Shown here: positions 1 to 49,749 of the stretch, piece by piece
Position numbering within the stretch: the first letter of the stretch is position 1
Layout of the letters: each line of letters begins with the position of its first letter
Assembly: GCA_008632985.1 (NCBI GenBank)
Contig: QPGO01000034.1
Span: forward strand, 387,311 to 451,310
Length of the DNA: 64,000 bases
Direction of reading: 5' to 3'
Source: Psammoneis japonica
Taxonomy: Eukaryota
Program-made: the position numbers and the translations under genes
Notes under the pieces: model-generated
Database searches by the model: none
What the model saw: the letters and a program-made list of their open reading frames with translations, nothing else
Told to the model about the DNA's origin: nothing

Positions 1-3000
1 CAAATTTGTGCTCTCAACTCTCCATGATGGGCTGCAAAAAGGTTGACTCCAACTCTCTGGCAATTCCGAAAAATTCCCCAGAGAGATTTGCAGATGGCTT
101 GCTGACAGCCTGTCTCATTGACATGCCAAGCCAAGCCCAGAGCTCTGTTTCACTCTTGTCAGAGGAGTGTGCACTGCTGCTCTTTTGTGAAAAAAAAGAG
201 TGAAGTGTGACTTCATTTGGACAAGCACCAGAGTCATGGAGCAGGGCCAAGCTTGAGCACAAAACACTGTTGGCCTGCCAATCATCTTGGCAGATCTCAG
301 CTTGACAAGTGACAAACATGTCAGACCATGTGGGCTGGGAGTTCCAAGCACACAACTGCTGTGCCAAAGTGAGAGAACTTGGGGTGCCAGAGAGTGACCA
401 ACACTCTGGCTGCTGGGCTCACTTTCAGGTTTTGACATCTTCTTTTGATGCCGAGGTCCCCCAAAGAATGTGAGAGCTGCAAAACTGAAACAAATGTTGT
501 CCCACCCAGCCAGTGTGGGCAGCAAGCTGATGGCAGCCATTGCTGCAGCTCAGTGCAACAGGCATGAGGGTGGAAAAGCACTGTGATCAAAGTTGACAAT
601 GTGCCAGTTTCCTCAGCTGCAGCAAGCTCTTGAGTGTGCCTTCTTTGACAAACTGCAATCTCAAGAGAAAAAATTGCAGTCTTTCTGCCTCACATGACAA
701 AAAGCAGGAGAGACAGCACCCCAAAGTCAATGACAATGTGGCAGGCAACAGACTGTGTCACAAAGAGATCTGTGTGGCTGGACAGCTGCCAGGTGTGATG
801 CAGCTGCATGATTCCCTGCCCCTTGTGCTTCTCTCTCAATGACCAGTTTGCATGTTCTCTTGGGTGGTGTGCACAGCAAGGCACAAAGCAGAGCATGTTG
901 ATGTCTTTTGTTTGTGCCCATGTTGTCATTCACAGAAGTGCTCCCAAGCAAGCCATGAAGTGCAGAGTTTGCTGCAAAGATTTGCACACCAAGCCCCTCC
1001 CTTTTTGTCACACACAAAAAAATGGTTTTGACCCATTCAACTGCTTTTTGACTCACTCAGTTGACATCCTCCTTTTTTGTTTACAAGCACTCATGAACAA
1101 GAAAATTGAAACACCTTTTTTGTGGAAAAGAAAACCTCACAAAAACACATTCATTCTTCTTGCTGTGTGCAAAACACACATGTGATGACCATTGTCACTT
1201 GCGATGATGCACTGGCACAAAAAGTGTTTGTCATCATCTCACAATGAACACACATGGAAATGCACAAACTCTGCCTCACAGTTGTCAAGTGACTGTGCAG
1301 CAACAAAGCAGAAGAGCCTTGTGACCCACCAAAAAGTGAGAAGCAGTGAAAGCCAAAAGAGGTGGGTGCTTGTGTGGGCCACAATGGCACCTGCCACCAC
1401 TGGCATCTCAAGATGATGACATGGTGCAACATGGGTCATGTTGAGCCTCCAAATGTTCTTGGCTGCTGTGCAGAGCTCCAGAAAAAGTTTGCAAGAGGCC
1501 CAGGTTGTCACAGGCACAATTTGTTGAGCTTGCCAAAATGTGTGAGGACTCTGATTGTTTTCACAGATGAAAAGAGGGTGGTGCACAGGATGCTTGCAGG
1601 GTGGAAGACACTCCACTGAGATTGTTGCCACTTCCTGTGCCTCAACACCTTGGATGTGGGTGGGCATCAATCAACCTGTTAGAAGCCACAGCTGTTGCTG
1701 AAGGAGCTGTGAGAGAGTGTTCTTTCATTTTTTCACAGAGTTTGGCTCAACCACACGATGTGAAAAATTTCTTTTGATGCCCACTGACTCTGACAATGCC
1801 TGCAAACACACAAAAAAAACTGAGGTCAATGGATTTCCTGTTGTGCTGTGGGTTCAACCAATGTGAAGGAGAGTCCTTGTCAGCACTTTCAGGCAGCCTG
1901 CTAGGTTGAATGACAAGAGTCTCTTGTGCTCTTTGGTGAGTTCTGGATGACATCATCTTTGAGCTGTGCAGCTGTGGTGAGTGTGGAAATGTTGCAAAAC
2001 AAAAAGTGTTGTGGTGCCAAACTGTTTTGGTTGATGGGTGCCTGGAATGGGCCAATGCTGTCTGCCTCCAATTGAGTCAACAACAAACTGGGCTGAGATT
2101 CAGTTTTCTGCTTGGCTGCTGGAGCATCAACATGAAAAGATGCGGAGCACACTTTTGGCATTTTGAAGGGGCACCTGTGCATCTTGAAACAGGGGCATGT
2201 CTTCAAGAAAGAGTCAGCAGTGCAGACTAAATCTGGTTGACCTGCTGTGCACTTCACAGCTGGCTGCTTGAGGCCACACATTGACTTGTCAAGGAATGCT
2301 GGGAGAAGGGAGTTTGAATTGGCCAGGAGGGTCCTCCAGGAGATCATGACAAGAAGATGGTGAGCAGGTTTGTGCCCAACCCAATTTCATGCCTCTGCTG
2401 TGCTGCCACCAGATGACAATTTGGGGTTCTTGTTGGAAGTGGTTTTGAGAAGGAGGGTGGAAGCAAGGGCAGTGAAGAAGCTGGGGTTGGTGGCAGCTTC
2501 AACAGGGTGTTGGCATCAGGACAAGAGGTGCAGGGGGGGGGGGGGTTGAATGACACCCAGCTTGTCCACAACTTGTTTTTAGATCATTTTAGGTCCAAGC
2601 TGCTGGCCAGGTGTTTTGACACTTCATTCATGGTTCACAGAGTGTGAGGTCCAGTGGCCATCTTGCACGGGGATGTCCCAACCAGCAGCGCGCAATGCCA
2701 AAACAACATGCAGCACACAATGTCTGAAACAGTTGACTTGATGGGTCAAATGGTGAATTAACACATTGCCAGCAACAAACTTGACAAGTTGTCTTGACAA
2801 GTCATGTGGTGTTGAAGCATTGCATTCTTGCTGGCAGTTGACTTGACAAGTCATGTGGTGAAATGCTGCACTGTTGGCAACCCACTTGACCAGTCATCTC
2901 CACACAAGTCATGTGGCAAAATGCTGAGTTGCTGGCAGCAACATCAAAAAGTCATTTGGCAAAATGCCACATTTCTGGCAGTGTTGACTTGACAAGTCAT

Positions 3001-6000
3001 GTGGTGAAATGCTGTGTGGCAAAATGCCACACCACCAGCAATTGACTCCACAAGCTGTTTGGTGAAATTTTGCATTGCTGGCAAGTCAACTCAGCAAGTC
3101 ATGTGGTGAGGTGCAGCATTTCTGGCAGTCAAATCAACAAGTTGTGTGGTGAAATGCTGCACTGGCTGCTGGCAGTCATCTTGACACATCATTTTGGTGA
3201 AATGCCACATTGCCAGCTGTCAACTCCAGAGTGTGCTGCAGCTCATCAAATTGCCAACTCTCATTTTGACCCCACAAGCAGGGGATGAAATGCCTGGCAT
3301 TTTCCTTCTGATGCAGCAGCTGCAGCAGCTGATGGCAAATCTCCTTGGTGGCCGCATTGTTGGCATCACTGGCCTCTGTGCCACCCCCAGTGGGGTGCTG
3401 CATCATTGTGCTTTTTTTGTGCCTCTTCATCAGAGATGCATGGCTGGACAAAGTCAGGTTGTCAGCACTGCTTGATGGCACTGCCTTGGCACAATCAATG
3501 GCTTCCCTTTGCTTGCTTTCAAGTTTGGCCTCAGTTTTTTCTAGCTCTGCTTCTGACCAAGAAAGTTGCACCATGCAGGCACATTCTAACAAAGTTGTGT
3601 TGTTGCACTTCTCAATCCTTTTTACATTGCAACTGAATTTTCTGTTCAGGTTTTTCAAAGTTGTGCACCAGTGGTGCAAAAAGCTGATCATTGACCCTGG
3701 CTTCATGGGCTTTAGAATGGGTGCCATCATTGACTTCATTTGGACCAGGGTTGCCAGCCAAAGGCACTGCTTGAAATTCAAGTCAGGCACACCCATTGTG
3801 CCCTTTTCACACTCTGCTGAATCTTCCTTTCATTTTTCATTCTCAACAGCTTTCCTGCATTTTTTCTCTTTTCAGCAGGCCTGTCTTTTGGGCCCTCCAT
3901 CACAGCAAGACTCCACCTGAGCTGCTTCATGACAGCCTGCACTGTTGGATCAGATGACAGAGATGCAACAAATGCTGTTCCCAAAAGATGTGTGTCCATG
4001 GTTTCAGAATCCACACATCATTGACAGTGCTGGCAGTTGCTCCAGAGCTGTTGGACTCTGTTTTCTCCTCATTGCATTCACTGGAAGCACCTTGCCCAAC
4101 TTTCAACTTGCTTTCCTGGCATGTGGGCTGCCTTTGTGGACAAAGTTGAGAGGCAGTCATCACACTCATCAGGCTCAGCCAGAGGGAAGCATGCATTTGT
4201 TGATGCAAGGTTTGTGCAGACTGTCTGCATGGGTCACTGTTGCAAAAACTTTCTTGCAGCTCTTCCTCAACATGTCCTCACCATCCACAAGAATGGCACA
4301 TTCTGAAAGCTTCACCATCAAGCCTGCAGCAATTCTTTGTGCAAATCATTCCTTTTTGGTTGTTTTGGTGGTGGTGGTGGGGGTGTCACCTTCTGGTGGC
4401 ACCCACTGTGGCTGATCCCATGCAAGCTCCTGCTGCACTGAAGCAGTGCACTGGGAGTTGGCTGGCACCAGCCCAGCTGGCAGTGGAGTGACAGCACATA
4501 AAATTTGGATTTGTTTTTTTTGGGGTGCACCAAGATTTGCACATGGAGCAAAGCACATGGGCTGGATGTGACTCTGAGGACATTGAGAGGGAAAGCAGGT
4601 GCAATGACCATGACTGCAGTGTCTGCAGACATGCAAGTTGGCAGCATGACTGAAGAGCTGAGTGGGAACTTAAGAAAGGAAGAGGCAATGGTCATGCTCC
4701 TGGCAAAGGTGACTGTGCATGTCAAAAATCAGATGTGCATGGGGTCCAGGAGCAAAAGGGGCAACTCAGCTGGGTGCAGGTGCCAGTGGGTTCCACCACA
4801 AGGTGATGAGAGCATGGAGGGAGTCAAAGTTGGGGGCGGTGGCACGGATGGCATCATTGCAACAGGAGGGCATCCAGTCAGAGAGCAAGGTGCACAGTGA
4901 GCAGGAATGAGGTTGTTGAGAAGCTCAAGCGTCTCAATGGTGTGCTGAGAAGTCTCAAACTCATCTAACTCAGATTGCATGGGATGATCAGATGGGTCAT
5001 CAGAAATGTCAAAAGAAGGATGAGGATGCTTGGGTGGAGGGGGGTCAGTCAGCAGAGAGCAGCCAGAAGTGCATGGAGGGGAAACAACTGGCAGCAAGAG
5101 TGGGTCCTTGGACTTCTGGAGGCTGCCACTCTTTGGGAAGGAGCTCAAGAGAATGACAGGAGAGGGTGCTGTGAGAAGGAGCAGTGGGCTGAGGGGCAGC
5201 AATGACACAGGGAGAAGGGAGAGAGCAACAGCATCAAGAGAAGAGGAGTTGGGGATGGCTGAAAGCAGGTCAGAAGGACAGCCATCACAGAGCTTTGAAG
5301 GTCAAGGTTAGAGTCACAGAGTGCAATCATGTGCAGCAAAGGGAAAAGCAAGAATTGAAACTTGATCAGGGGGCTCACATGAGCACAAAAGACCGGTGCA
5401 AGGAGTTGAGGTTGGGAGTGTGCAGGAGGAGTTGGACACTGGGTTCAGGAAGAGGACAGGGGGGGTGATCTGTGGTGTTGACATCAGTCACATTTTGTTG
5501 ACAAACAGAGATGTTGTTCAGGGCACCAATGCAAGTGCTTGCAGAGGATGCCACTGGAATGGGAAATGGGAGAGCAGCCACAGAAGAGCCAGCCAAGAGC
5601 TTAGAAAGATTTAGCAGAAGCAGAGAGTGGGGTTGGCAATGTGAAGGAGGGCACTCCAAATGTCATCAGAGGATGCAAAGATGCAGAAGACACAGAGCAG
5701 TGAAACACAGCAATGGGCTTGCATTGGGCCCAATGAACACTGGGAAGGCTGGATGCCAACAAGGTTGAGAAGAAAGGCAGAGCAGTCCTGGAAGGGCCAA
5801 AGAGTGGGACCAGCACGAAGCAGATGGTCACATGCATGGTGGGAGGATTCACATGTCAAAGAAGCAACACTGGTGAGGAGATGCCACAGTCTTTTTTGTG
5901 TTGTGCAGGCAGGGATCAAAAAAGTGTGGTGTCGGGTCCATGGGTTGTCAACAATGGGGGCTGGTGAGGAGGAGGGGTTGAGAAAGTTGGGAAGGCGCGC

Positions 6001-7130
6001 TGGTGGCCCAGAACTTGGTGAAATGGGAGGCAGGGTGCATGTGGCATTTCTGGTGGAGGAGGGAAAGGGCTTGACTGTGGAGGATGGTTGCAAAGTCAAA
6101 AGAGATTCCCTCAGGTGCAGTGTGGGGCAGTGCACAGCTTGGCTTTGCTGGGCCCACTGGCTCCAACAGGGCCCAGAGCAGCTCTTCTTGGTTTCAAAAA
6201 GAATGGCACACTTGAGCACAAAGAGAAGACAAAGAATGCACTGCTGATGACACTGGAGCCTGCAGATGACAATGTCCTCAAAAGTCTCTGCAGACAACAA
6301 GTTGACAGGGAGCTTTTGTCAGAGGGGTCGGCAGGGTGCAGGACTTGAGAACTGGGAGCTCAGCAGCAGCAGGCAAAGCAGAGGCAGCAGAGGAGGCAGA
6401 GGCAGACGTGGCAGGTGGCAACAGAAGAAAAGGCAATGAGCTTGACATTTGTGGGCAACTCACCAAAATCAGCACAGAGCCATGGTGGGAGGTGCTGGGC
6501 ACAGAGCCGCTGCATCAGCGGAGCGAGCTTGGGGGCGCAGGAGGAGGACAATGGGGAAGAGGAGGCGCAGGCAGTCATGTGAAGAGAGGCCACACAGATT
6601 GGCAGGAAAGGCACAGGAGGGGCAGTTGCACTGAAAAGCATGGGTGGAGTCATGTGGTTGGAAAGGGGCAACAGAAAAGCTCTCACAAGAGATTGAGGGA
6701 GCTGCGGTGTGGGGTGGTGTTGAACGAACACAGCTGAGGACGAGGAGGGAGAGCAGGAGTTGAGACAGAGAAAGGTGAACAGCAAGAAGAGGACTTTTGG
6801 CAAAAGGGATTCAAAAGGTGCAGAAGAAGGAGGGGAAAGAAGGCAGATGGGAAAGGGAGGCGGCGGCAATGGCAGCAGCAACAGACAAGAAAAGGAGCGA
6901 GCGACAAAACGCAAAAAGAAAGAGAACAAGAAGGCCATGCATGGCGGAGGGGCGGAGAGTCAGGAGGCCACTTTGGGAGGAGGTGCAGCAAAGTGCTGGT
7001 GCACCCGAGAAGGGATGCTGTCACTGTGGTCATTGCATGCTTCACAGGCGTTTCGATGTTGGTCCGACCAAGGGAGGGGCCCTTTGAAATTTGAAAGTGG
7101 TCCAGACTGTGTCAAACTTTCTCGTGACTG
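1..7130. other. TpA/CpG-depleted block of degenerate, probably repeat-derived DNA (element family not identified)
   Basis: TA and CG dinucleotides are nearly absent and TG/CA is in excess. The many overlapping ORFs are Tyr-less and Cys/His/Trp/Gln-rich. Normal composition resumes at about 7135. Confidence 0.75.
2730..3228. repeat. Degenerate ~40-bp tandem repeat, about 10-12 copies
   Basis: Recurrent unit approximating gcagttgacttgacaagtcatgtggtgaaatgctgcatttctg (e.g. near 2834, 2979, 3125, 3172). Confidence 0.85.
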
Positions 7131-7667
7131 AAAATAACTCATGATTGAAGATGACGTGTACACAGTGTTGCTTCGGTGTGTTGCTTCTGCCTGCTGGTTT
7201 CTGCAGCTGACAACTGGCCTGTAGAAAGTCTACGAGTTGAACCAGTGACTCAGATGTGCGGCAGATGACTGGATATTGCCCTCATGAAGTAGCGAAATAA
7301 TTACTTATGACACGGTTTGTCCGATAAGTGATGCCATATGCTTTTTACGTGTCATCTCTGTGACGGGAAGCCCTCCTCGTACAAAATCGTCGTGCAATCT
7401 ACGCGGGAATTGATGATGGTCGTCAACCCACCAACGATCCTGCTGTTTTTTGCCATCACACAAAAGAAAAACGAACTTGAACTCGATGATCTTATCAACA
7501 CGTCGATTGCCTCAACTGCACAGGACGAACCAGAGATAGCTAGAAGAGACACGATAGTAGTGAAAGGAACAAACTGAGTGTCTTGGAAGGAACAGAATAA
7601 CAACTTTTATCGAAAAAGAGCGCGCAAAGGCTCTAGAATAGGTGCTGCTTCTTTTGCGAGATTAAAG

Positions 7668-10347
7668 ATGCAAACCTTTCCTCCTCCAGCTGCTTCTGCG
7701 CAGAGCACAAATTCAGGACAGGCGGCGGCTCCAGCAACAAGCAATGTTGCTCCTTCTCAGCCTGGAACTGCTGTTCACACTCCTACGGGAGCCCCCGGTG
7801 TGTTGTTTCCTGTCGACCCAGCTACCGCATCTTTGATGATGAATCCGCACGCTGCTGCTGCCATGGTCGCCGCTGCTGTGCAGCACGGAGCATCGCAACA
7901 GGTTGCTCAGGCTCAGGCTGCAACGATTGCTTCTTCGCAGAACGTAGTTACCAGTCAGCCACAGACGGTGGCGAGCGCTCCAGCGCATTCTATGGGAACA
8001 GTGATGGCGGCCCTCCTAAATGGTATGGGTGGCCATGCTAACGCGGGTAGTCATCATCCATCAATACCGACACAACCTGCGGTGCAGTATCATGTGGCAG
8101 CAGCACAGCCACAAACGAGTACGCCATCGATGGTTGCACCGCCTTCGCAATCCTTACCCAACAACCCCGCCGCAGTAGCCGCTGCAGCTGCCCAAGTCGT
8201 AGCGGCGCACAATCCAGCCCAAACAGGACCCATGACAAGCGCGTTCATGTCCAACATCAAGACCTGGAAGCTTGGTCAGTTGGGTAAGTGGTAATGCGGA
8301 AGCATTGCGTGCTCCCCGACTCTTTCGATTGCCAACAAATGTTTCTTGTCTCTTTGTTTTCCTACAGAATCTCAAGTGCAGTTGCTTCGAGAAGCAAATC
8401 AACCAATTCCGCAACCACTCGCCATGTATTTGGCTGAAGCTCGTCGCAAGGAGGAGAAGAAAACAGCTAAGCGGGTCGCCAACCGAAAGTCTGCATGTAC
8501 ATCTCGTGCTCGAAAGAAAGCCCTAGTCGAGGAGATGACAAGAACGAACGCAAGACTGCGAAGACAAGCGATGATTTTGGCTCTACTTCCAGACCTGGTC
8601 ATCGCTATAACGGTGGACGGACAAATTACTTTCTGCAGCGCTCAAGTGGAAAGAGTGCTACGACATAAAGAACAAGATCTAGTGGGCGCCAATATTTTAG
8701 ACATCTTGGTACCTGCGTCGAAGGAAGCTCTGCAGCATCTAGTCGAAGAGCTTGTTGCTGCGGAACGTGCAGCGGCATCCGCCGACAACGTTGTCGCAGC
8801 ACGGGGTAGAACGGGGGCCGAGGCTATTGAAGCGAATACAAAGATGGTTAGAGCGATCAGCGCGAGCGGGAATGCTTCAGGACAGTCGTCTTCTGCCTCA
8901 GGAGGCGACGTTTCTTCTGCCGGTGCCGCTGTTGTTTCTGACCAGTCATTTCCCATGTCTGTGGTCAAGGTTCAGAATCAACAGCAAGATGCATCATCAG
9001 GCGGCGACTCAGACCTGTCAACGAGGAGCAATGGAGGCAAACCGGTTGCCCCTGTTTCTTCGATAACGAACAATTCGATAAGTCGCTCGACGACGAACTC
9101 ATCTTTTGGTATCCAAAGTGATGAAGCCGTTGTTCCACTCACCGCTTCAGGGGCTGCCAGTGCGGGAGAAACACATATAGAAAAGAGCCACGCTCCTGTT
9201 GCTGGTAAGAATACCCCCCATCAAGCACAGACAAGCAGCGACGACTCTTTGTCGTCTTCCTCCGACAGCAAGAACTTGCGGAAAGCGAATGAGGCGTTGA
9301 GCCAGAACGTGAGGTGGCACAACGAAAAGCTATTGGGGAAATCCAAAACTGGGTCGTCCAAATGCGCTCATAAGGACGACGTTACTGGAGCTTCAGTGAC
9401 TGCGAACAACGCCGACGCAAGATTATCCTCGCTTCAACATCACCCTCACGGAAGATCGTCTCCCAAGAAAAGTGTGCGATACGAGAGCCTTGAAGAGCAA
9501 TCTTCTGCTTGTTCTTCAGATTCTTTGCTCGCAGGTGTCGAGGAAAAGAAGAAGCGCAGCAACAAGGATTCGATCGAAAACGCGTCAGAAGATTCTGGAT
9601 ATAGGGAATCCAACGATAGCCAGTCGTCTCCGGAAAGTACGAGTGACAGCTCTAACGGTGAGTTTGGCATATGCTCAAAACTTGTACCTAATAGTCGAAG
9701 CGCGCCGCTCACCTGTTTTGTTGCCGTTTCTATTCCGTACCGTAGACAAGGCAAGACCAAAGCCCCTTGCACCCACTTGCAATGTCTGTCTGATTCGAGA
9801 CAACCTTACCACCGTGTGGTGCGAAGTAACGTCGTCCATTCGCACAAGATCCATTAAAGAATCTGTTGATAGTCAGGCGTTTAGCGGACAATCACCACCT
9901 AGTGCAGCAATGGCCGCATCCTCTGCTGAGAACTCCAAAGAATCGAAGACATTTCAGCAGTCTTCAGCCGACCCGGGTTCGTCTGGTGATGTCGTCAAGG
10001 AATTGCTTCTCTGTCTACGCCCGATTCGCGACGGCGAAGAAATGGTGGACGAGTCACTACGTTTCGTTCCTGCCTCAAGGCAAGAAGCTTCCACGATGAT
10101 GGACGTTGACCAATCGAATCAGAATTCGTCTTCTGGCGGGAACAGCACGTCCAATGGAAGTGATCAGAACACTCCCGCAAAATCAAGACCACCAAAGAAG
10201 AGGCGGATAGTCGATCAGCGGGAGTGTACTAAAGTTTCAAGCGATAGCAGTGCGAACGGTGCGAAGAAAAGTCGGTTGTCCGATGATACGGAAAAGAGCG
10301 TCGTTGAATCCCTTATTCTCATGTCCAACAACTCTACCAATGCATAG
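7668..10347 (+). CDS. bZIP-PAS transcription factor (3 exons: 7668-8283, 8368-9657, 9746-10347)
   Basis: Basic region KRVANRKSACTSRARKK plus a short zipper, followed by a PAS N-terminal part (LALLPDLVIAITVDGQITFCSAQVERVL). The PAS C-terminal strands (CLIRDNLTTVWCEVTSSIR, ELLLCLRP) are in exon 3. GT-AG introns 8284-8367 and 9658-9745 join the ORFs in frame. Confidence 0.88.
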
Positions 10348-19646: not shown

Positions 19647-20560
19647 TTAGATTCCGACTTCCAGATGTAGGAGAGCCAATGCTACTGTATTTGACCATTG
19701 CACTTCCACGAAAGCCCCCTTTCTTGCCGCTTCTCGCAGTTCAGAAAGGCTTAGCTTGGTTTCATCCTGCGGCTCCATGTCCTTTGCCCCAACTTCGTCG
19801 GCTTCTTCCGCACCCGCTACTACTAGATCTCCCCGAGGAGGATGGGAAATGGCAACAGGGTGACACTTCGTTGCAAGAAAACTATGCACAAGTACGTAAA
19901 AATCATAAGAGCTTGAGATGGCATTCCATTTGGATTGCGCTCTTGCAAGCTCACCAATAATACTCACGGAAACACCCAACCCGCACCTCTATTGACATCT
20001 GTACGAAATCTTCCAAGAGAATGAAATTTCTCGCAAAATTTTCCTGTCTCTTCCTCCACTTCTCGCCTAGCAGCTGTCTCGGCTTCCTCGCCAGGCTCAA
20101 TGATTCCGCCAACAATCGCCAAGGACGTTCGACCTTCCAGCGCATATTTCGATTGCTTAAATATAAGAAAGCTTCTTTCCTTACCAGGCTCATTCTCATC
20201 TTCTACTAAAACATTGATGCGGTTGTGGTAGTCGATCCACAGCCAGTCATCGATTAATGCGTCGCTTCCAGGTGCTCGTATTGTGTGCTGCTGTACTTTG
20301 AGGAACTTGGACTCTACGAGGCATTCAACCTTGATGGTATCCTCAGTTCTGTAGACCTCTCCACGATATTCTCCAAGTGATATTCCACATTGACCATTAC
20401 CGTTCCGTCTGGGAAATACAAACTCGTTCAGTGCCAGGATACCCAAAAGAGCTAGTGTTGCGATGGCAAGCTTTATGCCACTCGACATTTCGGGGAATCT
20501 ATTAATAATAGTCTGAACCTTCTTTCGTCTAGATTCCTTGAACGGGTTCTTTCTATTCAT
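19647..20560 (-). CDS. Nudix hydrolase with N-terminal hydrophobic segment (intron 19882-19967; start uncertain)
   Basis: Nudix box GGIIEPGEEAETAARREVEEETG. A GTGAGT...CATAG intron joins GWVFP to FLATKC in frame. Confidence 0.85.
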
Positions 20561-20739
20561 TGAGAAACCCAGGGCTGCGAGCCACAAGAAATGAATTCAT
20601 ACACTCACCGTTCACCGTCTTCTGCACAACAAACAAACCGCAACAAACAACAAGACGCGACGCGTTTCAAAAAGTGAAAACAAAAAACATGAACTGTGTG
20701 AAGCAGCGTGTCGCGTGTCGACGTACGTACTGTACGCTC

Positions 20740-21430
20740 GTTGCGTTACTCTATCTCAATCAAACCTACTGTACCTACCTCTCTCTCTCTCTCTCTCTAC
20801 TACATAGAGTAGAGTAGTAGCTACTCTAGAGAGCAAGTTAGTAGCTAGAGTAGCTAGCTAGAGAGTAGAGAGAGAGAGAGTATTCGAATATTCCAGCTAC
20901 GGTAGAGCTAGGCCCTACTGTACTCTCTCTCTCTCTCTCTCTCTCTCAAGAGAGAGAGAGAGAGAGAGAGAGAGTAGGGTACCGGTAGATAGAATAGTAG
21001 GACTTTTATTAAATAGGATGAGCTTTGTACAATGGAGGCAACTCTATTAATACTTCTAGGATTACTGTTACGCTACGGGCTGTTTGCACATTAGATAACC
21101 CCGAAGTAAAAACAGATTCAAACTCGTACCGTAGGTGTGGCCGAAGCGACCGCCATCACACTAGGGCCCTCTAGGACCCTACAGTATCATAGCTTATGTA
21201 TGATGACTCCATCTGCCCTCTATTCTCTAGTAGAGCTACTGTAGAGTCTACTAGATCTAGTAGGCAGTAGGGAACGAGAACAGTCTACCGTAGCTACCAA
21301 AAGGTAGAGCGTTATTTGGCCTCGAGTGTCTAGCTAGAGTGTCAAGTTTCTCATTCTATATAGTCTACCTCTAGCTAGAGTAGTAGTTTATCTATCTACC
21401 GTATCTGTCGATAGTGTACCGGTAGTGGTC
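20740..21430. repeat. (CT)n/(GA)n microsatellites and TAG/CTAG-rich spacer, including a perfect 27-bp inverted repeat at 20921-20976
   Basis: Read directly from the sequence. Confidence 0.85.
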
Positions 21431-22034
21431 TGTCACCGCACGGTAGAGACTGGATCGACAAATAATAGACTAATGTCATGATTGCACTGGCCTGAAGAGA
21501 ATAGAGGCATTTCGGCTAGACTACACGCACCTACATTCCGTAGGTGGATAAGTCGCCAAGCAGTCAGTTTCCCAGCCAACTTTAAGGCGTGAGCGCTTTC
21601 CGAGCTTCCGCCCTTCGTTAGCGCTTCGCTCAAATATTCGTGCATATCTATATTGTTTCTGCCCCCCAAAAGTCCACATACGGCATGTGAACTTTTTGAG
21701 AGAGGATACGGAAAGATGAAACATGAAAGGGGCTAAAAACAAACTATGTAACCAAAAGCGACTCGTTTCATTCAATTTCAAATTCAAGAACAACACATGC
21801 ATCAATCGAATCAAAACATGGTAACACAGACTCTAGCATCAAAGCGCTCAATCGATGAAGATGAAATTAGCAAACACTTCGCGCCCCGAGATTCAACATA
21901 AAAGTACTTGAAACTCAAACATCAATTGTTCAATAGAACGCTTCAAGTCAATACAGCCACAATAACAAAACTTGCAGGAGCCGGCAAGGACACGACGAGA
22001 GGCAGACGCGACAAGCCGTCACCGCAAAACTTCC

Positions 22035-25117: not shown

Positions 25118-27319
25118 TCACTCCCCAGCGTTGTGGGCTTCAAGAACCTGGAGGGCCTCGGTTATTTTAGAGTTCAAGGCTTCGGGACTCTCGAGCAAAT
25201 GTAGCAACTCGGAGTTGTCCATCTCAAGAAGCATTCCGGTAATCTTTCCGGCCAATTCTGGTTGCGACTGATGAATGAGCGGGTAGAGGCGTTCGCCAAT
25301 CATATTCTTTTGCATTTCAGGACTGGCAGATGCGAGCGCAGACGCCGTCAATGCACCTTCAGCTGCAACAGGTTGTGCTTGAGGGGCGGGTGCTCCTTGC
25401 ATAGGCGCTTGCGAACCGCCGGCGTTGCGGGCTTGTTGGTTGAACTTGATTGGCTGCTGTCCCCCGGAGCCTCGGCCTTGTTGCATTGGAGCACCACGTC
25501 CACCACCGCGCCCACTTCGGCCTGGACCCCCAGGCACACGGCCACTACGACCGCCTTGTTGGGGCATAACACCATATCCAGGCATCGGATAACCTCCGCG
25601 ACCTTGCTGGCCAGACATCATGGGGTACATACCGCGCGGCTGTTGCCCCGCGCCACGGCCTCCGGGACCTCCCATCATCTGCGGCATCATTGGATATGCA
25701 GGTTGCATTGAGCCACCGGGGCCGGGTCGCTGCATGTACATGGGCATTCCACCAGGGTATCCCATGGGCGCTCCCATCGGACCGCCACGCATCATTCCTG
25801 GCTGTCCAGGGCCACCAGCTGGGCCACCGCGGTTGGCGTGCTGGGCCTCGAGCTGGGCGCGGCGAACCTCTCTTCGTTGGGCGAGCGCCACAAAGATTGG
25901 CTTGTTGGCAATAAGCTTGCCATTCATCTCGTTGACAGCTCGTGTCGCTTCTTCAGGGGAAGAGAAGCACACGAAACCGAATCCTCGAGATCGGCCGTCC
26001 TTCATATCCTTCATAATACGGGCAGATGTGATCGTACCCATTGCGGAAAACTCATTGCGAAGAATGTCATCGGTGACAGAGTCGTCAAGATTCTTCACGT
26101 AAAGATTAACTCCTTGGAACTTGGAGATACGTTCCATCTTCTCGGCGTCAAACTTGGCTCGAAGTTCGCGTTCCCGATCAATCTTCTTCTGGGCGCGTCC
26201 TACAAAAAGCTCCTGTGTGATTTCCTCACCGTCCACGGTGGTTTTTACCTCTTTTCCGTTCAGCTGTTCAATTGCGGCAACGGCAGCATCGTGCTCAGCA
26301 AAGTTGACGAACCCAAAGCCAAGAGATTCAATCTTTTGTGGCTCTTCGTCTTCGTTCTTTTCCGTTTCGCCGTCTTCCTTTTTCTTCGTTGCTTCTTCCT
26401 TGTCTTCGTCTTCCGGCTTCCCTTCTTTCTTCTTGTCTTCTCCAGTGGCGTCTTCCTCCTTCTTTCCTTCCTCTTCTGCATCTTCTTTCTTCTCGTCCGC
26501 TTTTTCATCTTCTGGTTTCTTCCTGGGGAACTTCTTACGAACTCCCGTCGTGATAGTCGCGCTTAGGATCTCTCCGAACTGGGAGAACTCTTCCTTGAGC
26601 TTTTCATCATCCCACTCATATGGGATATTCTTGATGAATACGTTAGTCCACTCATTTACACCGGGACGTTCGTTGCGACGCATAAAGTGTCCGACCTGGA
26701 CTTCCTGCCCATCGATCAGCATACCGTCGAGCTTCTCAATAGCAGCCTTGGCGGAATCGGCAGTTTCATAGTGGACATAGCCGTATCCCTTCGACTTTCC
26801 GGTTTCCCTGTCAGTAACAACCTTGCAGGAAAGAATGTTTCCAAAGAGACTGAATGTGTCGTAGAGTTGCTTGTTGTCAATCGACTCGTGAAGGTTCTTG
26901 ACAAAGATGTTTCCGATTCCAGAACGACGAAGGGAGGGGTCGCGCTGACTCCACATGATCCTGCACGGCTTGCCTTTGATCATGGTGTAGTTCATGGTTT
27001 CGAGAGCGCGCTCGGCATCAGGAAGCTGATGGAAGTTCACGTACGCATAGCCGAGAGAGCGACGCGTGATGGAGTCACGACAAACGCGAATGGACGCAAC
27101 AGGTCCGACAGCGTTGAAGATCTCAAATAAGAGACCCTCATTCACATCCGGGGCAAGATCTCCCACATAGAGAGACGCGGAGTGGAAAGGCTGGGCCTCT
27201 CCTCCACCAGTGGGGGGACCTCCCTGGTAGGGAGCAGAGTTGGTCGTAGCTGGAGCTTCGGGTGCAGCGCCGGGTTCGGCAGCTGGAGCAGGTTCAGGAA
27301 CGGTGGCAGGGGCGGACAT
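25118..27319 (-). CDS. PABP: Cytoplasmic poly(A)-binding protein (4 RRM + MLLE)
   Basis: SLYVGDL, RSLGYAYVNF, NIFVKNL, GVNLYVKNL; MLLE domain KNMIGERLYPLI...AGKITGMLLEMD. Uninterrupted 733-aa ORF. Confidence 0.98.
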   Translation of the reverse strand: MSAPATVPEPAPAAEPGAAPEAPATTNSAPYQGGPPTGGGEAQPFHSASLYVGDLAPDVNEGLLFEIFNAVGPVASIRVCRDSITRRSLGYAYVNFHQLPDAERALETMNYTMIKGKPCRIMWSQRDPSLRRSGIGNIFVKNLHESIDNKQLYDTFSLFGNILSCKVVTDRETGKSKGYGYVHYETADSAKAAIEKLDGMLIDGQEVQVGHFMRRNERPGVNEWTNVFIKNIPYEWDDEKLKEEFSQFGEILSATITTGVRKKFPRKKPEDEKADEKKEDAEEEGKKEEDATGEDKKKEGKPEDEDKEEATKKKEDGETEKNEDEEPQKIESLGFGFVNFAEHDAAVAAIEQLNGKEVKTTVDGEEITQELFVGRAQKKIDRERELRAKFDAEKMERISKFQGVNLYVKNLDDSVTDDILRNEFSAMGTITSARIMKDMKDGRSRGFGFVCFSSPEEATRAVNEMNGKLIANKPIFVALAQRREVRRAQLEAQHANRGGPAGGPGQPGMMRGGPMGAPMGYPGGMPMYMQRPGPGGSMQPAYPMMPQMMGGPGGRGAGQQPRGMYPMMSGQQGRGGYPMPGYGVMPQQGGRSGRVPGGPGRSGRGGGRGAPMQQGRGSGGQQPIKFNQQARNAGGSQAPMQGAPAPQAQPVAAEGALTASALASASPEMQKNMIGERLYPLIHQSQPELAGKITGMLLEMDNSELLHLLESPEALNSKITEALQVLEAHNAGE

Positions 27320-28743
27320 GTTGATACTCTGATAGTTTGATTCTTTTTCTTTTCGTGTTGTTATGCTTTGTTTGTCTTGGTAGAAAGTGTTGATTGGCTT
27401 TTTCGACTTAAATTTCTGGTGGTCTGCAGTTGCTTTAGCTGAAAAAGTGAACTGGTCTTATAACAATGTAGAGCAGTAGAACGGTCTACTGAGAAGGCTT
27501 TCTGTGGCAAAAGCACAAAATGGGACAGGAATTGGATTAGAACCTCAAACGCAAGGGGGTTGAGAAGGTAAGATGGATGGAGGGGAGCAAAAGAGTTATT
27601 CGCAGTTTCACGCCGTGTTTGCGTCGCGGTGAATCCCGGCCGCACATTACTTCGTTTCGTTGAACTCCCGCCGACCAAACGTGTACACCATGATTCCACG
27701 AATGAAACTGAACCGGTACTTTAATTCGCGGAAAGTGGTCATGAAAAGGAATTTTGAAGAGGGCAAAATCATGTTGCATCCGCGCGTACGAGGAGCCCGT
27801 AGCGGAAATTAGTACTAAGGGTTACGTAGCTTCTACGTGAACGAGCGACAGAAAACAATCAACCAATGCGATAACGACTCGACTCCTCGTGCTCCATTTT
27901 TCAAACAATTTCCCGTCGACATCACATCGACTGAAACCAAGAATGGCGATCATTTGGGAACGTACATTTTTATGGTTTTTGGTGGTCGCAGGGGCGGCTC
28001 GTCTTTCTCGTCCTCTCCAACTAGCGTAAGCTGGTGAACAGGCTCTTTTTTCTTTTTTCTTTTTTGTGCGGAGTTTTGTGGTGGCAAAAGCTTGCGCCAG
28101 AGGGTGGTCGCGCGTCCATCCCGCGCCCTTGCTGGCCTCCCGCGGCCCCGGACAGACGGGTGAGACGACAGTCGGGCCGCCGGGCTGGGTGACCACTTTC
28201 AAAATGATGGAAGTCGCAAGCGGTCTTTGCACATGAAACATTTCTTTAGTGTGTGTGGGTGTTGTGCTGTTTTGGGATGTCTTTTTGACTTCTCTCTGCA
28301 TTGATCATTGGTGTGGTTGTTTTGGCTGGAGTGGTTGGCTGTCACCCACAGCTGATTTTCCTTTTTTCTCACTCCTTTGGGGGCACTGGGATTTGGAATC
28401 AGGATGTTGTGTTGTCATTTGTTTTTGCAGCAAATTCCTGGTGTTCTGAGAAAGAACATGCCAAAGGTTGCACACTGCCGTTGTCATTTTTTGGGATGGG
28501 GTGCCAGTGTCTCCTTTTCCTGGCTGGCTGGCCAGCATCAACCCCAGCCCCTTTTCTTTTTGGGGGGTCGTGTTCGTCGATGGTGCTGGGGAGCCAGCTT
28601 CAGCACCACACACTGTGCCCTCATGCACTTGCCCAGCTCTCAATGCAAATGTGGCACACAACAAAGTGAGAAGCTTGCAAAATGTTGTTCTCGTGCGATT
28701 TGCTGTTTTTTTTTTGGGGCATGGCAAAGCTTTTTTCTTTTCT

Positions 28744-28780
<37 letters not shown>

Positions 28781-29306
28781 CGAATGAACAAAATTGGTGA
28801 AGCCAGTTTTTCATCAAATGTGACTGACAAGAATGCAAGCAGCCAAGGTGGGAGCCACCAGCTCTCTCTCCTCTCTCCTCTCTGGCTTTGCGCAAAGCTT
28901 TCAGTTTTCAACAACCAGCAACTGACAGCACACAATTGGTGCAAAAATGACAGCCACAAAAATCAAATGATGCACAAAAAAACTCACCCCCCACCACAAA
29001 AAACTGTGACTGACACGCCTCATCACTCCCTGCTGAAAGAGCTGTTTTGTGCTTCTTTTCACAAGCAGAGCATGCTCCCAAATGTTTTTGTGGCTGCCAC
29101 CATTTGTCAAGCTGGAAATCTGAGTCCTCAGCTGAGGAGATGCAAGAGCTAGAGCAGGTGTGGGAAAGCCATGAAATGGGTGCAGCAACCTGCCTGCATG
29201 GTGCTGCAAGCCTGGGCACCTTCTCTCACACATGCTGGCACTGGCACGCCACTCAACTTTGTGTGCATGTTTGTGTGTGAGTGAGGAAATGTGCACACTG
29301 TCCTCT

Positions 29307-29545
29307 TGTTGGAACATTGGGGTGCAAGGCAATTTTTGCAGGACAGACAATGCTGCAGTGTGATCATTGATGATGTGGTGAATTTGCATTTGCAGCTCTT
29401 GTTGAGTTGTGGGTCTTGCACTCACATTTTAGCTTCAGCACCTGGCTGACATGGCAACAGTGGAGATGGCGCAACAGAAATGTGTTTGCAATCCACATGG
29501 CAAGTTGTTCAGGGATTGGGGAGACTGAGTGCACGCCAGTTGGCA
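29307..29545 (+). repeat. 5' LTR
   Basis: tgttggaacattggggtgc...gccagttggca aligns with 30813-31061. Confidence 0.8.
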
Positions 29546-30812
29546 AGCCATGAAATCCCAGTGCAGAAGCCAAAAATGCTGGCTGGGAAGTCATCAAAAG
29601 AATCCAAAGGTGCAACTCATGTCAGTGGATTGTGGTGGCAAACACGCCAGCTGGATCAAGACAAAAAGACAATCTCTGGAGGGCCTTGCTGTGAGGAAGC
29701 TGTCAAGGGTCTGCCAAAAAAGGGCATGACAGCAAGGTTGTGTCAGACTGGTGGAAACATGGACAAGAAACAAGCACAAAATGCAACTGAGCACAGAAGC
29801 ATGAAAGATTTGAAGGAGTGGGTGTGTGACACCATTGCAGAGTCAGGTCAACAAGCAGACAGTTGCACATGGAGACCATGAGAAAAACAGCTGAGAGTGT
29901 CAGAAGAATGTTTGGACTGGCAGAGATGCAGGTGCTGGTTTCTCCAAGGTGGGAGAACAAGCTGAAGGAGCTGGAATGTCCATTGGGTGATGCCACAATG
30001 GAGAAGGACAAGGCAGTCTGGGGGAAGCAACAATGTGGTCACTGTGTGAAGCAGGATGTGATCTACAAAATGCAGAAAGTGAGTGCATTTGGCATGATTT
30101 GTGGGACAGTGCATGAAAGCCATCCATCACAAGATTGAAGGACAGATGAAGTTTGAGAGGGTTGCAAAGGAGTGAGACATGGTGGTGCCATTGGAGCTCT
30201 CAAGTCAATCTTGTTTGATGCAAACAAAAGAGCCCCCACTGGCATGTCCAAGCAGCTGGGCTTAGAAGCAGTTGTTGCTCATTCACCAGGATGAAGGAGA
30301 GGTGCTCCACAAGATTGTTGCAATCCATTCATGATGAGCATTGCCAAGATGGCAGAAGGGTCCTGTGGCAGACTCGTCCAGGAAAAAGTTGCCAAAAAAA
30401 AGATGGGTTCTTCAGCAAGGATGCTGATGATGCCCGGAAGAAAGAAAGAAAGAAGCTGTTGGCAGCACTGCCAATGGAAGGTGCCAAGGAACATTGGCGT
30501 GTCTTGAAAGATCTGCACAGGTGTTGGACACATGCTGGTTCAACAAGAAACACGAGGGTGTGAACTTTGGGCAAAGCAAGAAGAAGCAGATCAAATGCTG
30601 GAAATGTGACAAGGTTGGGCATGTGAAACAGGATTGTTTGTTGCTCAATGACAATGATGATGATTGTTCATCAGTGGATTTGGGTGACACAGGCCACAGG
30701 AATTGGTGGAGTGCAGTTGAAGTGGCAAACTGGATGGCACAGTTTCCAAGTGTCATCCTCCTGTTGCCAGCATGCACAAGGTCAATCAATTGATTGCTTG
30801 TGCAAAGGAGTG

Positions 30813-31061
30813 TGTTGGAACATTGGGGTGCCATGCAGTTCTCACAGGACAGACAATGTTTCAGCAAAGGATGCACTGATGATTGTTGATGATGATGTGG
30901 TGAATTTGTGCACACAGCTCTTTTTGAGTTGTGGGTCTTGTGCTCACTTTTTGGCTCTGCACCCAGTTGACATGGCAACAGTGGCAATGGAAATGGAAAT
31001 GTGCTTGCAATCCATGGAGTGAATTTGGGGATCAGTGAGACCAAGCATGTGCCAGCCAACA
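30813..31061 (+). repeat. 3' LTR
   Basis: tgttggaacattggggtgc...gccagccaaca; has TGTTGG/CCAACA terminal inverted hexamers. Confidence 0.82.
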
Positions 31062-33179
31062 AACTGTGAACCCCCAACACCTCTTGAGTGGAGAATGGGT
31101 GCTGGCAGCCATTTTTTGATCATGATGTTGTTGTTGTCACTTGTTGCATTTTTAGAACATTGTCAAAAACTTTCCTTTCTCCCATGGATTGGCTTTTTTG
31201 ACATTGCCAGCTTGTTCCAGTGCCCCAGGTGAAACACACTCAACTCAGAGATGATTTTCTCATTTGCAGCACTCATGTTCAAGATCATTGTTGTCCACAA
31301 TGTTGCACCCCACAACACAGCCAAACAGCACAACACCAATGCTGGCACAAATCTTGAACTTTCACACCTTGTGTCAAAACAAAAACAGTGCCGTTGGAAC
31401 CACAGAATTTTGTTTCTTGATGCATGGGCACTGTCTCTCATTTTACATTCAGAAGTGCATGTGGGTGCCAGGCTTGTGGGTGGCTTCAACAACTTTCAAG
31501 TGCAAAGTTCTTTTGCACCCCAGTTGGTCAATCAACACATGGCACCATCACATCAGACACATCTGAAAAATGTTGCATGGATCCAATCAACTCAGCCATC
31601 CACATGATCGCCAACTTTGTGCAGGGTGCACAACAAGGCAGAAAAGTCCTTTGAGGGTGCAATGGCTCCATTGTTTTAACAAGAGCTGCACAGAGCTTTT
31701 CTGCTTCCTTTGGAACACACATGTCATGCTCACTTTGTGTTGTTGGCTGGCGCCACTTCTGCTGGTGTTGCAAAGTTGTGACAAGTTGTCAAAACAAAGC
31801 CACATGTGCAGCCACAGCAAGCCATGGTGACTTTTGTGTAAAAAATGCACACAGCTCTCCACACAAAGTTCTGAGCACTGACCAGCATGTGAAGCTCATT
31901 TTTACATGTTCAAAGGCACGAACAATTTCATCACTGGCTTCAACAAAGCACTCTGTGTGTTGGGAAAAATGCTGCTGACAAATTCATCGCATGATGTGCA
32001 AGCACCCACCAACAAAAACTTGTTCACTTGGCTGGAAGGTTTCATCAGCTTGTTGGATCATGAGGATGAACAAAACTTCACTTTCAAGATCAACAACTCT
32101 TTGTGTTGTGGTTGAAGTTCCTCTCCTCTGCTGGAACAAAAACAAGGCCCAAAGAAATTGAGTGCTTTCCAACACAGAGAAGAGGGCCTTGCCTGTGATG
32201 GAGCATGTGCTCATGTTCTTTGTGCAACAATCATTTTTGACGGAGGAGATCCAACCCCAACATGGAGAGTGTGCAAAACATCTGTCTTTGAGCACTTTTG
32301 TTTCATGTGGGTCTGGGGCAAGCCGTCTGCCAGCATTGTGCAACCCCCCGCCCCCTCCCAAGCTGTGTGTGTTGTGCCACAATCCAACAGCCAACACAGC
32401 TCTGGCAAAAGCTGGACAAGTCAAGTTTTTTCACTTTCAGAGTGTCCCAAGCCTGCAACCTCTGTTGTTGAGACACATCTGGCTGAACATGCAGCAGGAA
32501 GACAACGGTGGCAGCCTGTGTCATCTCATGAAGTTGAGCTCCAAAATCATTCTTCTGCAAATCCCAAAGAGTTGTCTTCTGTCTCTCAGAGCTTTTGGAG
32601 TGTCTCACTGGGATTGATGGCTAATCTCAGAACTGCTGGAGATGTCCACTTGGACAGCGATGCACTGTCCTTCTGGGAACGGAAGCGTGCAACCGTGGTG
32701 TCTGTCCGTCTTGCTTCCGCAATCGCGTTTTACGCCACGTGGCCCAACTGGATGAATTTGGGCAATGAGAGTTCAAGCTACAGCACCGGTACTTTCTCTA
32801 AGTAGATAGTTTTTAGAGTAACAAGTTTGAAAGCGACTAAAGCAGAGTACAGAGATCTCTTTTTACAGAGAGAATTAGCCGTATAGAATCGATAGATCTC
32901 TCTGGTTTGATGAAGATACGGACACAACAGCAGACGAGATCGATCGAGACTTAGAGAGCTGTAGAAACGAAAAGATGCTCCAAAACAGACTAGCCAACAT
33001 GGAAGTTCACGAGGATGGCGTGAGGAGCTAAGCTTGGCACGATAATCATTGATTTATCACGTGACAAACGTCCAACATCAGCCAGGACAAAAAATGCAAC
33101 TCTTCATCATCAACCCTGTCTAGAGTTTGCCATGATACTGTAAAGTCATGTAAAAACACAGTGCAATGACGGCAGCTCG

Positions 33180-45200: not shown

Positions 45201-45349
45201 CTGCAGCATGTTCCCCGCCTGCATTGCACACCAGGACCAGCCAACCTGCTTGCCAACACATGCTCTTGCAAATTCAGCACCAAGAGTCTAACCTCCTTGC
45301 CACCTTGTCTTCCCTTGCACCTCAGACAAAATCTTGGAGAATGCAAAGC

Positions 45350-46516: not shown

Positions 46517-46989
46517 ATCCAGCCCACCCTCGGCTCTGCCTCTTGTCCAACCCTTTCCTTGTCTGCCCTCCAAGTTTGGCAGTGGAGGCGGTTCTGGGCT
46601 GAGGAGCTGTCAACCCCAGCAAAGCATGAAGCCACCAAAACTGCCACCAACCAAGTGGGACGAACTCCCAAGCAGCGCAGGTGGCATCAGCCATTTGAGC
46701 AGCAAGGGAGAAGGACAGATGCTCCAGCCAACAACAGCCATGAATGGACCAAATGCCAATGGCATTCGTTGTTGCAACTCATTGCCGCCTGCCGAGGCCA
46801 CAACAGCAGTTGCAATTTTGACCCACCTCTCCCACCCTGGGCTGCCTGAGGAGGCAGTTCTGAGCCAGGGAGCTGTCAACCCCAGCAATGCCTGAAGCCA
46901 CCAAAACCACCACCAACTGGGCAGGATGAACTCCCAAGCAGTGCATGTGGCATTGGTCACACGCGCCTTGTGCACGCCTCTTTCCAGTG

Positions 46990-49490: not shown

Positions 49491-49749
49491 ACCTTTTACA
49501 ATGCCTTGTGTTCATGAAGATAGACACAGCCGGCGAAGCGTGCAATGGATGTTTCACCACAGGAAGCTGGCCAAAGACACTTATTCTAAGTGTTACGCAG
49601 CATTTGTCAAAAGGCATGAGGAGTCGTCGCTTCTCATGTTCAGTTGTATGAACATAGATTCTAATAAAGGAGAGGCGATTCGGCAGGCATCGGGTGAAAG
49701 TTCGACTAATCGCACTTGTCCAAAACATCTCTCCTAAACGTTATGTCAG

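Follow-up and report, generated by a model that had tools for sequence, protein, structure and literature searches.

What erases nearly every TA dinucleotide from stretches of a diatom genome, and is this loss a mere companion of the loss of CG? The question is raised by 64 kb of the Psammoneis japonica genome (assembly GCA_008632985.1, contig QPGO01000034.1, positions 387,311 to 451,310 of the forward strand), called the window below and numbered from its first base. Its GC content is 49%, and it contains long unbroken open reading frames (ORFs). Sliding counts and dinucleotide tables delimited four blocks, at 1-7134, ~28028-32650, 41752-49496 and 57979-61978, in which CG and TA are both replaced by TG and CA. 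The third block includes a dead retroelement of the Ngaro type, and at the right end of the first lies a segment, 6501-7134, that retains CG and has no TA. These two sites show that the TA and CG losses are uncoupled in space and represent separable processes.

In the blocks, the ratio of observed to expected counts (o/e) is 0.05-0.28 for CG and 0.02-0.05 for TA, compared with 0.99 and 0.61, respectively, outside. TG and CA are raised to 1.7-2.0, from ~1.1 outside. The share of pyrimidine-purine steps is 0.234-0.257 inside the blocks (0.197 in the segment labelled F1) versus 0.234-0.241 outside, and the GC content of the blocks is not shifted (0.45-0.58). An unchanged step share is as expected of transitions restricted to the CG, TA, TG and CA steps. 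When the blocks are divided into segments, the TA o/e is always 0.00-0.09, with TG and CA at 1.4-2.0, and the CG o/e ranges from 0.05 to 0.68.

A TA step and a CG ramp at block edges

At block edges, TA loss takes the form of a step, and CG loss that of a ramp extending ~1 kb inward. In the right-hand part of block 1, hardly any CG is found up to 6407, and CG reappears from 6508. The last TA before the segment 6501-7134 is at 5612 and the next one at 7135. The segment thus contains no TA, with 16.9 expected (Poisson P = 4e-8) from its local base frequencies (A 0.312, T 0.140) and the background TA o/e of 0.61. It harbours 20 of the 40.0 CG expected (o/e 0.50), which is below the outside level (P = 4.5e-4) and above the core level of 0.08 (P = 2.5e-10), and its TG and CA are enriched. 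It is poor in T and rich in purines on the + strand. A preliminary description of this DNA had noted common CG and absent TA from about 6500 to 7130, and these coordinates turned out to be exact.

We located change points by Poisson fits with the local base composition as exposure and with 2-log-likelihood support. At the right edge of block 1, the CG change point is at 6507 (support 6472-6860) and that of TA at 7134 (7073-7221), 627 bp apart with no overlap. In 211-bp bins starting at 5711, the CG o/e goes through 0.08, 0.25, 0.07, 0.30, 0.32, 0.60 and 0.56 before reaching 0.86 outside, and the TA o/e is 0 throughout, then 0.74 outside.

The left end of the Ngaro-like element provides an edge with a defined boundary. 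The TA o/e drops there from 1.07 to 0.17 within one 250-bp bin, the step being at most ~35 bp from the start of the terminal repeat A1 (41752-41758), and just outside five TA are found in 22 bp (41699-41720). From this end inward, the CG o/e declines in 250-bp bins as 0.88, 0.64, 0.50, 0.38 and 0.20, and then stays near 0.25. As the TA step sits on the element boundary, this second fringe is inside the element: TA loss goes no further than the edge, and CG decay ends before reaching it. The second fringe, placed earlier at about 41760-42400, holds at 41752-42473, although it is TA-poor rather than TA-free. The observation that CG survives in dozens of places through the Ngaro body with TA almost gone also stands (91 CG versus 7 TA in 42474-46953).

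The twin repeats A1 and A2 of this element separate position from the other factors. A1, at the element edge, keeps 11 CG and A2, 4.9 kb further in, keeps 3, with 1 and 0 TA, respectively. At six of the ten transitions between them, A1 has CG where A2 has TG or CA. Since the two copies were presumably identical at insertion, their CG difference reflects position, not sequence or age.

Nevertheless, the fringe is not a general property of block edges. Among the seven edges analysed, the change points are clearly separate at one, offset with overlapping support at two, and within 75 bp of each other at four. At the two offset edges, 28028-28246 and the Ngaro left end, the CG and TA estimates lie 194 and 305 bp apart, respectively, with the same orientation as at 7134. 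The idea that the two boundaries might coincide once base composition is corrected for is thus contradicted at 7134. At all seven, TA is back to an o/e of 0.44-1.16 within the first 200 bp outside.

We aligned the seven edges on the TA step and took the CG o/e from the first 200 bp inside. Those facing the 5' end of a gene (7134, 28028, 41752 and 57979) gave 0.49, 0.99, 0.92 and 0.46, for 45 CG in 800 bp, and those facing a gene 3' end (32650, 49496 and 61978) gave 0.09, 0.37 and 0.09, for 6 CG in 600 bp. The edge at 7134 belongs to the former group because of the nearby ATG of the PAS-domain gene (Table 1). The two groups are completely separated by rank (one-sided P = 1/35), and the distances from the edge to the neighbouring ORF are alike in both (~260-710 bp). 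With seven edges and ORF-inferred gene models, the dependence of CG retention on gene orientation is a lead, not a result.

Direction and sequence context of the losses

Alignments of the relatives of the element's reverse transcriptase (RT) and predicted recombinase indicate the direction of the changes. None of their five conserved Tyr is kept in the element: three positions have become Cys and two His, and all five codons are TGY or CAY. Eight of the 29 conserved Arg are kept, 18 are His, Gln, Cys or Trp, and three are other residues. In the RT, three of the 11 Arg remain (two encoded by CGN, one by AGG), the other eight all being His, Gln, Cys or Trp, and both Tyr have become Cys. In the recombinase, five of the 18 Arg are kept, ten are His, Gln, Cys or Trp and three are other residues, with one Tyr changed to Cys and two to His. 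The lost Tyr residues include the invariant C-terminal Tyr of the recombinase, which, from its motif, we take to be the catalytic one. One conserved Ile is now encoded as Thr (ACA). The two longest ORFs of the element have no Tyr in 832 residues, compared with a median of 2.1% in their relatives, and their Cys and His contents are raised and that of Arg is halved. The blocks also carry frameshifts and in-frame stops and have lost ORFs. Since conserved Tyr became Cys or His and most conserved Arg became His, Gln, Cys or Trp, both losses are mutations that occurred after the genes were functional.

The two losses differ in their chemistry, TA loss being an A:T to G:C change at TpA and CG loss a C:G to T:A change at CpG. 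The conversion of TAY to TGY corresponds to A-to-G on the sense strand and that of TAY to CAY to T-to-C on the sense strand. Both occur, and thus both DNA strands were hit, which excludes editing of the sense RNA only. RTA and TAY contexts were destroyed alike. ADAR-type RNA hyperediting fixed by retrotransposition was considered and ruled out, given the sense T-to-C changes in two of the five Tyr (now His) and in the Ile (now Thr); ADAR editing of sense RNA gives A-to-G on one strand only, in contrast with the A-to-G and T-to-C changes seen here on the sense strand.

The same spectrum is found between the twin repeats of the element. Over A1/A2 and B1/B2, there are 24 transitions and 7 transversions (14 and 3 for B1/B2, together with four TG/CA double differences). 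They include nine cases of CG against TG or CA, one of TA against CA, and five double differences of TG against CA, a pattern that arises when a single ancestral CG or TA is hit independently, in place or on one molecule. The changes of CG to TG or CA in 18 of the 29 conserved Arg columns and in nine twin-repeat differences are what methylation-driven decay would give. A possible transcription-coupled signal, based on CA exceeding TG in the element, was dropped, as the replacements show no clear strand bias (11 CAN versus 7 TGN for Arg, 2 CAY versus 3 TGY for Tyr).

The different chemistry, the spatial uncoupling and the A1/A2 comparison support the earlier proposal that TA is not lost simply as a consequence of CpG decay. 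Its corollary that TA loss is faster is consistent with our data, TA being at its floor in the youngest-looking element while ~28% of the CG survives there, but this is not proven. That TA loss spreads further than CpG decay is not supported at the only edge with a known boundary, where the TA step sits on the end of the element.

The TA dinucleotides that survive in the four blocks are not a random sample: 34 of 53 are in a YTAR context, versus 287 of 1597 outside (Fisher P = 5e-13). The inside/outside ratios per base are 0.004 for RTAY (1 inside, 466 outside), 0.027 for RTAR, 0.048 for YTAY and 0.204 for YTAR. These ratios fit a product model with two independent strands, in which the survival per strand is 0.065 for TAY and 0.45 for TAR, and which predicts 0.029 for both mixed classes. 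This implies that the target on each strand is 5'-TAY-3'. Surviving CG dinucleotides show no flanking-base bias, a further difference between the two processes. We also asked if the surviving TA could be new ones derived from CAG or CTG. This was rejected, since many RTAG would be predicted, whereas ATAG and GTAG together amount to 2 inside the blocks versus 255 outside.

TadA/ADAT enzymes use a U-A-C context in the anticodon loop, and the 3' pyrimidine favoured by the TA process recalls this context more than the preference of ADAR. The latter prefers a 5' U/T neighbour, as cited in the available text of a recent preprint (bioRxiv 10.64898/2026.01.13.699255). Separately, blocks 1, 2 and 4 have an AT o/e of 0.68-0.76 (0.90 outside) and a GC o/e of 1.20-1.28 (1.05 outside), which hints at a weaker A:T to G:C pressure beyond the TpA context.

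The Ngaro-like element, the other blocks and the neighbouring genes

The coordinates of the features are collected in Table 1. ORF1 of the element has neither Tyr codons nor a family match, and its length is exceeded in only 0.3% of first-order Markov simulations. Downstream, the RT region is broken across frames. For a 325-residue ORF in it (43971-44945), 1666 relatives were retrieved at E <= 0.001, with a top match at E = 8e-61 and 46% identity, and when 150 of them were searched back on the window they matched the RT region only. A weak RVT_1 match, below the Pfam cut-off, was obtained for 14 of the 24 relatives scanned, and no Pfam match was found for the window copy itself. From motifs recognized by eye, we presume that this RT belongs to the DIRS-like clade.

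The next remnant, 45648-46520, is predicted to derive from a tyrosine recombinase, in place of an integrase. The direct searches were of little help. A word-based homology search with the 165-residue piece 45648-46142 found no match among longer proteins, the read-through sequence gave only a sub-threshold Pfam match to an unrelated family, and a sequence-profile search of the PDB with the alignment of the relatives returned no matches. However, the AlphaFold model of one relative (predicted local distance difference test score, pLDDT, 82.6) was used for a fold search, and the leading PDB matches were all tyrosine recombinases, namely Cre/Tre, XerH, XerA, the lambda and Tn1549 integrases and Flp, with a best match at E = 7.7e-4 and a template-modelling (TM) score of 0.44. 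Elements of the Ngaro group have split direct repeats arranged as A1 ... B1-A2-B2, and this arrangement is present here. The label 'Ngaro' given in the preliminary description is thus supported by the RT, the tyrosine recombinase and the split direct repeats together.

Table 1. Position and main characteristics of the features in the window.
Feature	Position	Strand	Characteristics
Block 1 core	1-6500		19 CG (o/e 0.05), 17 TA (o/e 0.04), TG o/e 1.71, CA o/e 1.99
PAS-domain gene	7668-9857	+	In-frame ATG at 7668, 534 bp from the TA edge of block 1
Poly(A)-binding protein gene	25118-27320	-	Start codon 27318-27320, ~700 bp from the left edge of block 2
Short fringe, left edge of block 2	28028-28246		0 TA vs 6.0 expected (P = 0.0026); 17 CG of 17.4 (o/e 0.98)
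Block 2 core	28247-32650		26 CG, 12 TA
Xrn1-type exonuclease gene, N-terminal exon	40455-41381	-	XRN_N, E = 9e-91; gene 5' end ~370 bp from the left end of the Ngaro-like element
Ngaro-like (DIRS-order) dead retroelement	41752-46953	+	Repeat A1, ORFs, repeat B1, repeat A2, repeat B2
Terminal repeat A1	41752-41890	+	11 CG, 1 TA
Fringe, 5' part of the element	41752-42473	+	40 CG of 60.0 expected (o/e 0.67), 3 TA of 19.5 (o/e 0.09)
ORF1	42073-43593	+	507 residues
RT region	43863-45652	+	Includes the 325-residue ORF
Predicted tyrosine-recombinase remnant	45648-46520	+	Two in-frame TGA; read through with X, 48 relatives, up to 52% identical
Repeat B1	46584-46687	+	3 CG
Internal repeat A2, twin of A1	46688-46822	+	3 CG, 0 TA
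Repeat B2, twin of B1	46850-46953	+	0 CG
Degraded block adjoining the element	46954-49496		30 CG, 9 TA
Block 4	57979-61978		28 CG, 5 TA; no coding remnant beyond chance

In the degraded sequence beside the element, a 246-residue ORF (47242-47979, + strand) is longer than expected by chance (P = 0.003) and has no Pfam match. Short tandem repeats are found just past it, at 47943-48179.

The other blocks are more difficult to classify. In comparison with ORF lengths in first-order Markov simulations, no ORF longer than chance was found in blocks 1, 2 and 4. The core of block 1, in which no ORF exceeds chance length, is thus old, unclassified degraded sequence. Pfam scans of 23 long ORFs and of 108 of the 211 block ORFs of at least 70 residues detected no transposon domain in any block; the 108 ORFs represent blocks 3 and 4, and from blocks 1 and 2 four long ORFs were scanned. 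The ORFs of the window scanned with Pfam did not include a deaminase gene. Self-BLAST, k-mer comparison in a purine/pyrimidine alphabet and all-against-all BLASTP of the block ORFs revealed no similarity between blocks. When 6450-7200 was aligned locally with the entire window, tolerating transitions, the block 1 fringe showed no similarity to other blocks either. The best scores of this alignment (85, 66 and 60.5, compared with 41-56 for ten shuffled queries on the + strand) fall in gene-rich intervals outside the blocks and were taken as low complexity without inspection of the alignments.

Block 1 contains degenerate tandem-like repeats with a period of ~145 bp and 73-78% identity (2798-3164). 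From 4500 to 7134, its + strand has a strong purine excess (A+G ~0.66-0.69). Transitions cannot create such an excess, which must therefore be ancestral to the degraded sequence. Block 2 harbours a direct repeat (29307-29495 and 30813-31014), the copies of which are 1.5 kb apart and ~76% identical, with 20 transitions, 10 transversions and six TG/CA double differences. These copies may represent terminal repeats of a further dead element.

The ORFs of the window code for an Xrn1-type exonuclease, a poly(A)-binding protein, a KH-domain protein, a PI4-kinase, a PH-domain protein and the C-terminal part of a DEAH-helicase. The poly(A)-binding protein shows 65-79% identity to the 120 relatives listed, and 73-77% to the best-scoring ones, which are diatom proteins. 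All of those listed with an organism name come from diatoms, among them Seminavis, Cylindrotheca, Nitzschia, Entomoneis, Pseudo-nitzschia and Odontella. In its composition, the window appears to be similar to Phaeodactylum. The N-terminal ORF of the Xrn1-type gene begins right after a stop codon and at position 6 of the Pfam profile, and its start codon probably sits in a short upstream exon. An intergenic region (20500-22000) has the opposite composition to the blocks, with a GC content of 0.44 and a TA o/e of 1.07-1.30. It also contains TAG-rich repeats, and (CT)n and (AG)n tracts that form a near-perfect palindrome at 20916-20981.

Possible explanations and related systems

We consider it probable that two processes have acted on these blocks, namely a TpA hypermutation bounded by the inserted element, and a slower CpG decay that tapers toward edges near gene 5' ends. 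The fringe would then be transposon-derived sequence in which the former is complete and the latter partial. The first process would convert TpA to TpG or CpA by A:T to G:C transitions on either strand, 5'-TAY-3' being hit hardest. It would be confined to the inserted element, with a step-like edge, and saturated in every block whatever its age. Its agent is likely to be a DNA adenine deaminase, and its substrate may be the integrated copy or a DNA intermediate before integration. In the second process, methylated CpG would decay to TpG or CpA in the ordinary way, slowly enough for younger elements to hold CG still. This decay would weaken over approximately the last kb of a block facing the 5' end of a neighbouring gene, where promoter-side chromatin probably excludes CpG methylation.

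Several points weigh against this interpretation. Three of the four blocks have no transposon classification. In the segment 6501-7134, neither transposon homology nor a coding remnant was detected, and its treatment as element sequence is an assumption modelled on the Ngaro end. A junction of sequences of different age could also underlie the CG change point at 6507. The edge at 57979 faces a gene 5' end and has a fringe of only ~50 bp. Gene orientations were deduced from ORFs and Pfam matches, and the ORF next to that edge (56313-57569, - strand) has no family match. The link of CG decay with methylation and promoters is drawn from seven edges in one window. The context analysis assumes that the blocks once shared the TA contexts of the genic DNA outside. 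Finally, a TpA hotspot is not reported in the available text on mutation accumulation in the diatom Phaeodactylum tricornutum (Krasovec et al. 2019).

The possible age junction at 6507 leads to an explanation that we find fairly unlikely, in which 6501-7134 is a fragment of a younger insertion beside an older one, with TA saturated in both and CG retention reporting age. The Ngaro-like element, which has ORFs beyond chance, does have a CG o/e of 0.28 versus 0.05-0.11 in the blocks devoid of coding remnants, and the best single change point, at 6507, marks a rather sharp rise (0.08 to 0.82). However, the CG o/e declines smoothly from 0.88 to 0.20 over 1 kb within that one element of a single age, position matters for the CG of its twin repeats, and the 211-bp bins over 5711-7187 describe a ramp, not a plateau. 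The absence of detectable homology and coding remnants in 6501-7134 would also suit an outward leakage, whereby the TA process, unlike CpG decay, overshoots several hundred bases into unique host DNA. Repeat-induced point mutation (RIP) of fungi leaks into flanks in this manner. We regard leakage as unlikely here, since TA is normal outside the only edge with a defined element end and recovers in the first 200 bp outside all seven edges, and since the fringe is enriched in TG and CA and has lost part of its CG too.

The shared blocks of CG and TA depletion might suggest a single process, with one deaminase acting efficiently on A at TpA and less so on C at CpG. The available text of the preprint mentioned above cites ADAT2-type enzymes able to edit A as well as C in DNA (bioRxiv 10.64898/2026.01.13.699255). 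A single process appears quite improbable, because the ratio of the TA and CG log-survivals is not constant (~2 in the element body, ~5 in its first 720 bp and >4 in 6501-7134), A1 and A2 differ in CG and not in TA, and only the TA survivors have a strong flanking-base bias. In addition, the hypermutations of the alga described in that text are at A:T in 230 of 231 cases. That base composition, chance, or errors of sequencing or assembly at modified bases produced the pattern is hardly credible. The fringe is T-poor and purine-rich, and systematic base-calling errors do occur at methylated motifs; nevertheless, the absence of TA persists after correction for composition, and the depletion is at least 95% and is accompanied by frameshifts, in-frame stops and ORF loss. 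Moreover, the same TpA spectrum was obtained in that other alga from Illumina mutation-accumulation data, according to the available text (bioRxiv 10.64898/2026.01.13.699255).

In the literature searched, TpA-specific hypermutation is known only from that 2026 preprint, on Bigelowiella natans. In its available text, 230 of 231 mutations in two integrated viral regions of mutation-accumulation lines are A-to-G or T-to-C, those all at TpA, at a rate ~1000x the background, the genome has 124 TpA-poor, CpA+TpG-rich clusters, and an ADAT2-like deaminase is proposed as the agent, as a hypothesis only (Mettrop et al., bioRxiv 10.64898/2026.01.13.699255). The change of TpA to TpG or CpA on both strands and the resulting TpA-depleted, CpA+TpG-enriched clusters are shared with our locus. 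In B. natans, as described in that text, hypermutation is restricted to foreign DNA, and RT and DDE domains are enriched among the depleted genes. In our window, such a restriction is seen at the Ngaro left end, and the other three blocks and 6501-7134 have no mobile-DNA identification. B. natans is a chlorarachniophyte (Rhizaria) and P. japonica a diatom (Stramenopila). The rate was measured directly in the former, whereas we see only the end state. TpA depletion is partial in the giant-virus insert of B. natans (TpA Rho 0.45) and at least 95% here, and CpG co-depletion and a 3' pyrimidine preference are found here, while the main text of the preprint does not deal with CpG, diatoms or trinucleotide context.

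Other systems are related more distantly. Fungal RIP changes CpA to TpA, enriches TpA, lowers the GC content and needs duplicated sequence. Like the TA process, it is a transition hypermutation at a preferred dinucleotide that serves genome defence, kills transposons and leaves compositional blocks. As an explanation it was rejected, as here TpA is depleted, CpA and TpG are enriched, the GC content is 0.45-0.58 and the blocks are not duplicates of one another in the window. Methylated-CpG decay has in common with the CG process the change of CG to TG or CA in transposons, the retention of CG near gene 5' ends and a loss that grows with apparent age, but unlike in a host CpG island, the CG ramp here is inside the transposon edge. 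Editing by ADAR, ADAT and APOBEC enzymes shares the use of deamination as a defence against retroelements and viruses.

In diatoms, DNMT5-dependent CG methylation is found in P. tricornutum on transposons marked by H3K27me3 and H3K9me2/3, according to the available text (Hoguin et al. 2023), for which bisulfite data are deposited as GSE186855 (PMC9998398). CG is the most mutable dinucleotide in mutation-accumulation lines of this species, as stated in the available text (Krasovec et al. 2019). The available text of a survey of diatom retrotransposons (Maumus et al. 2009) does not mention mutations of the kind described here. We found no earlier report of TpA loss in diatom transposons in the literature searched, which was thin in subscription journals and is not proof of absence.

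More specifically, and tentatively, as we lean slightly to the side of doubt, the TA process might be a diatom 'inverse RIP', a defence that treats each inserted element as one unit, with adenine in 5'-TAY-3' being deaminated on both DNA strands until TA has all but disappeared, independently of DNMT5-type methylation and much faster than CpG decay.

With a saturated TpA footprint in a diatom, hypermutation of the B. natans type would reach into another major lineage of algae, and its targets would include retrotransposons. The fringe separates the TA process from CpG decay without an experiment, as TA is lost everywhere and CG only away from the edge, even in the same repeat. The 3' pyrimidine preference is a concrete property for which candidate deaminases can be assayed biochemically. 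Old insertions in diatom genomes could be mapped from dinucleotide steps, and CG ramps could be long-term records of methylation boundaries. If the 'inverse RIP' proposal is true, sharp TA edges mark the limits of ancient insertions that are beyond the reach of homology searches, and CG ramps record how far promoter chromatin has excluded methylation over evolutionary time.

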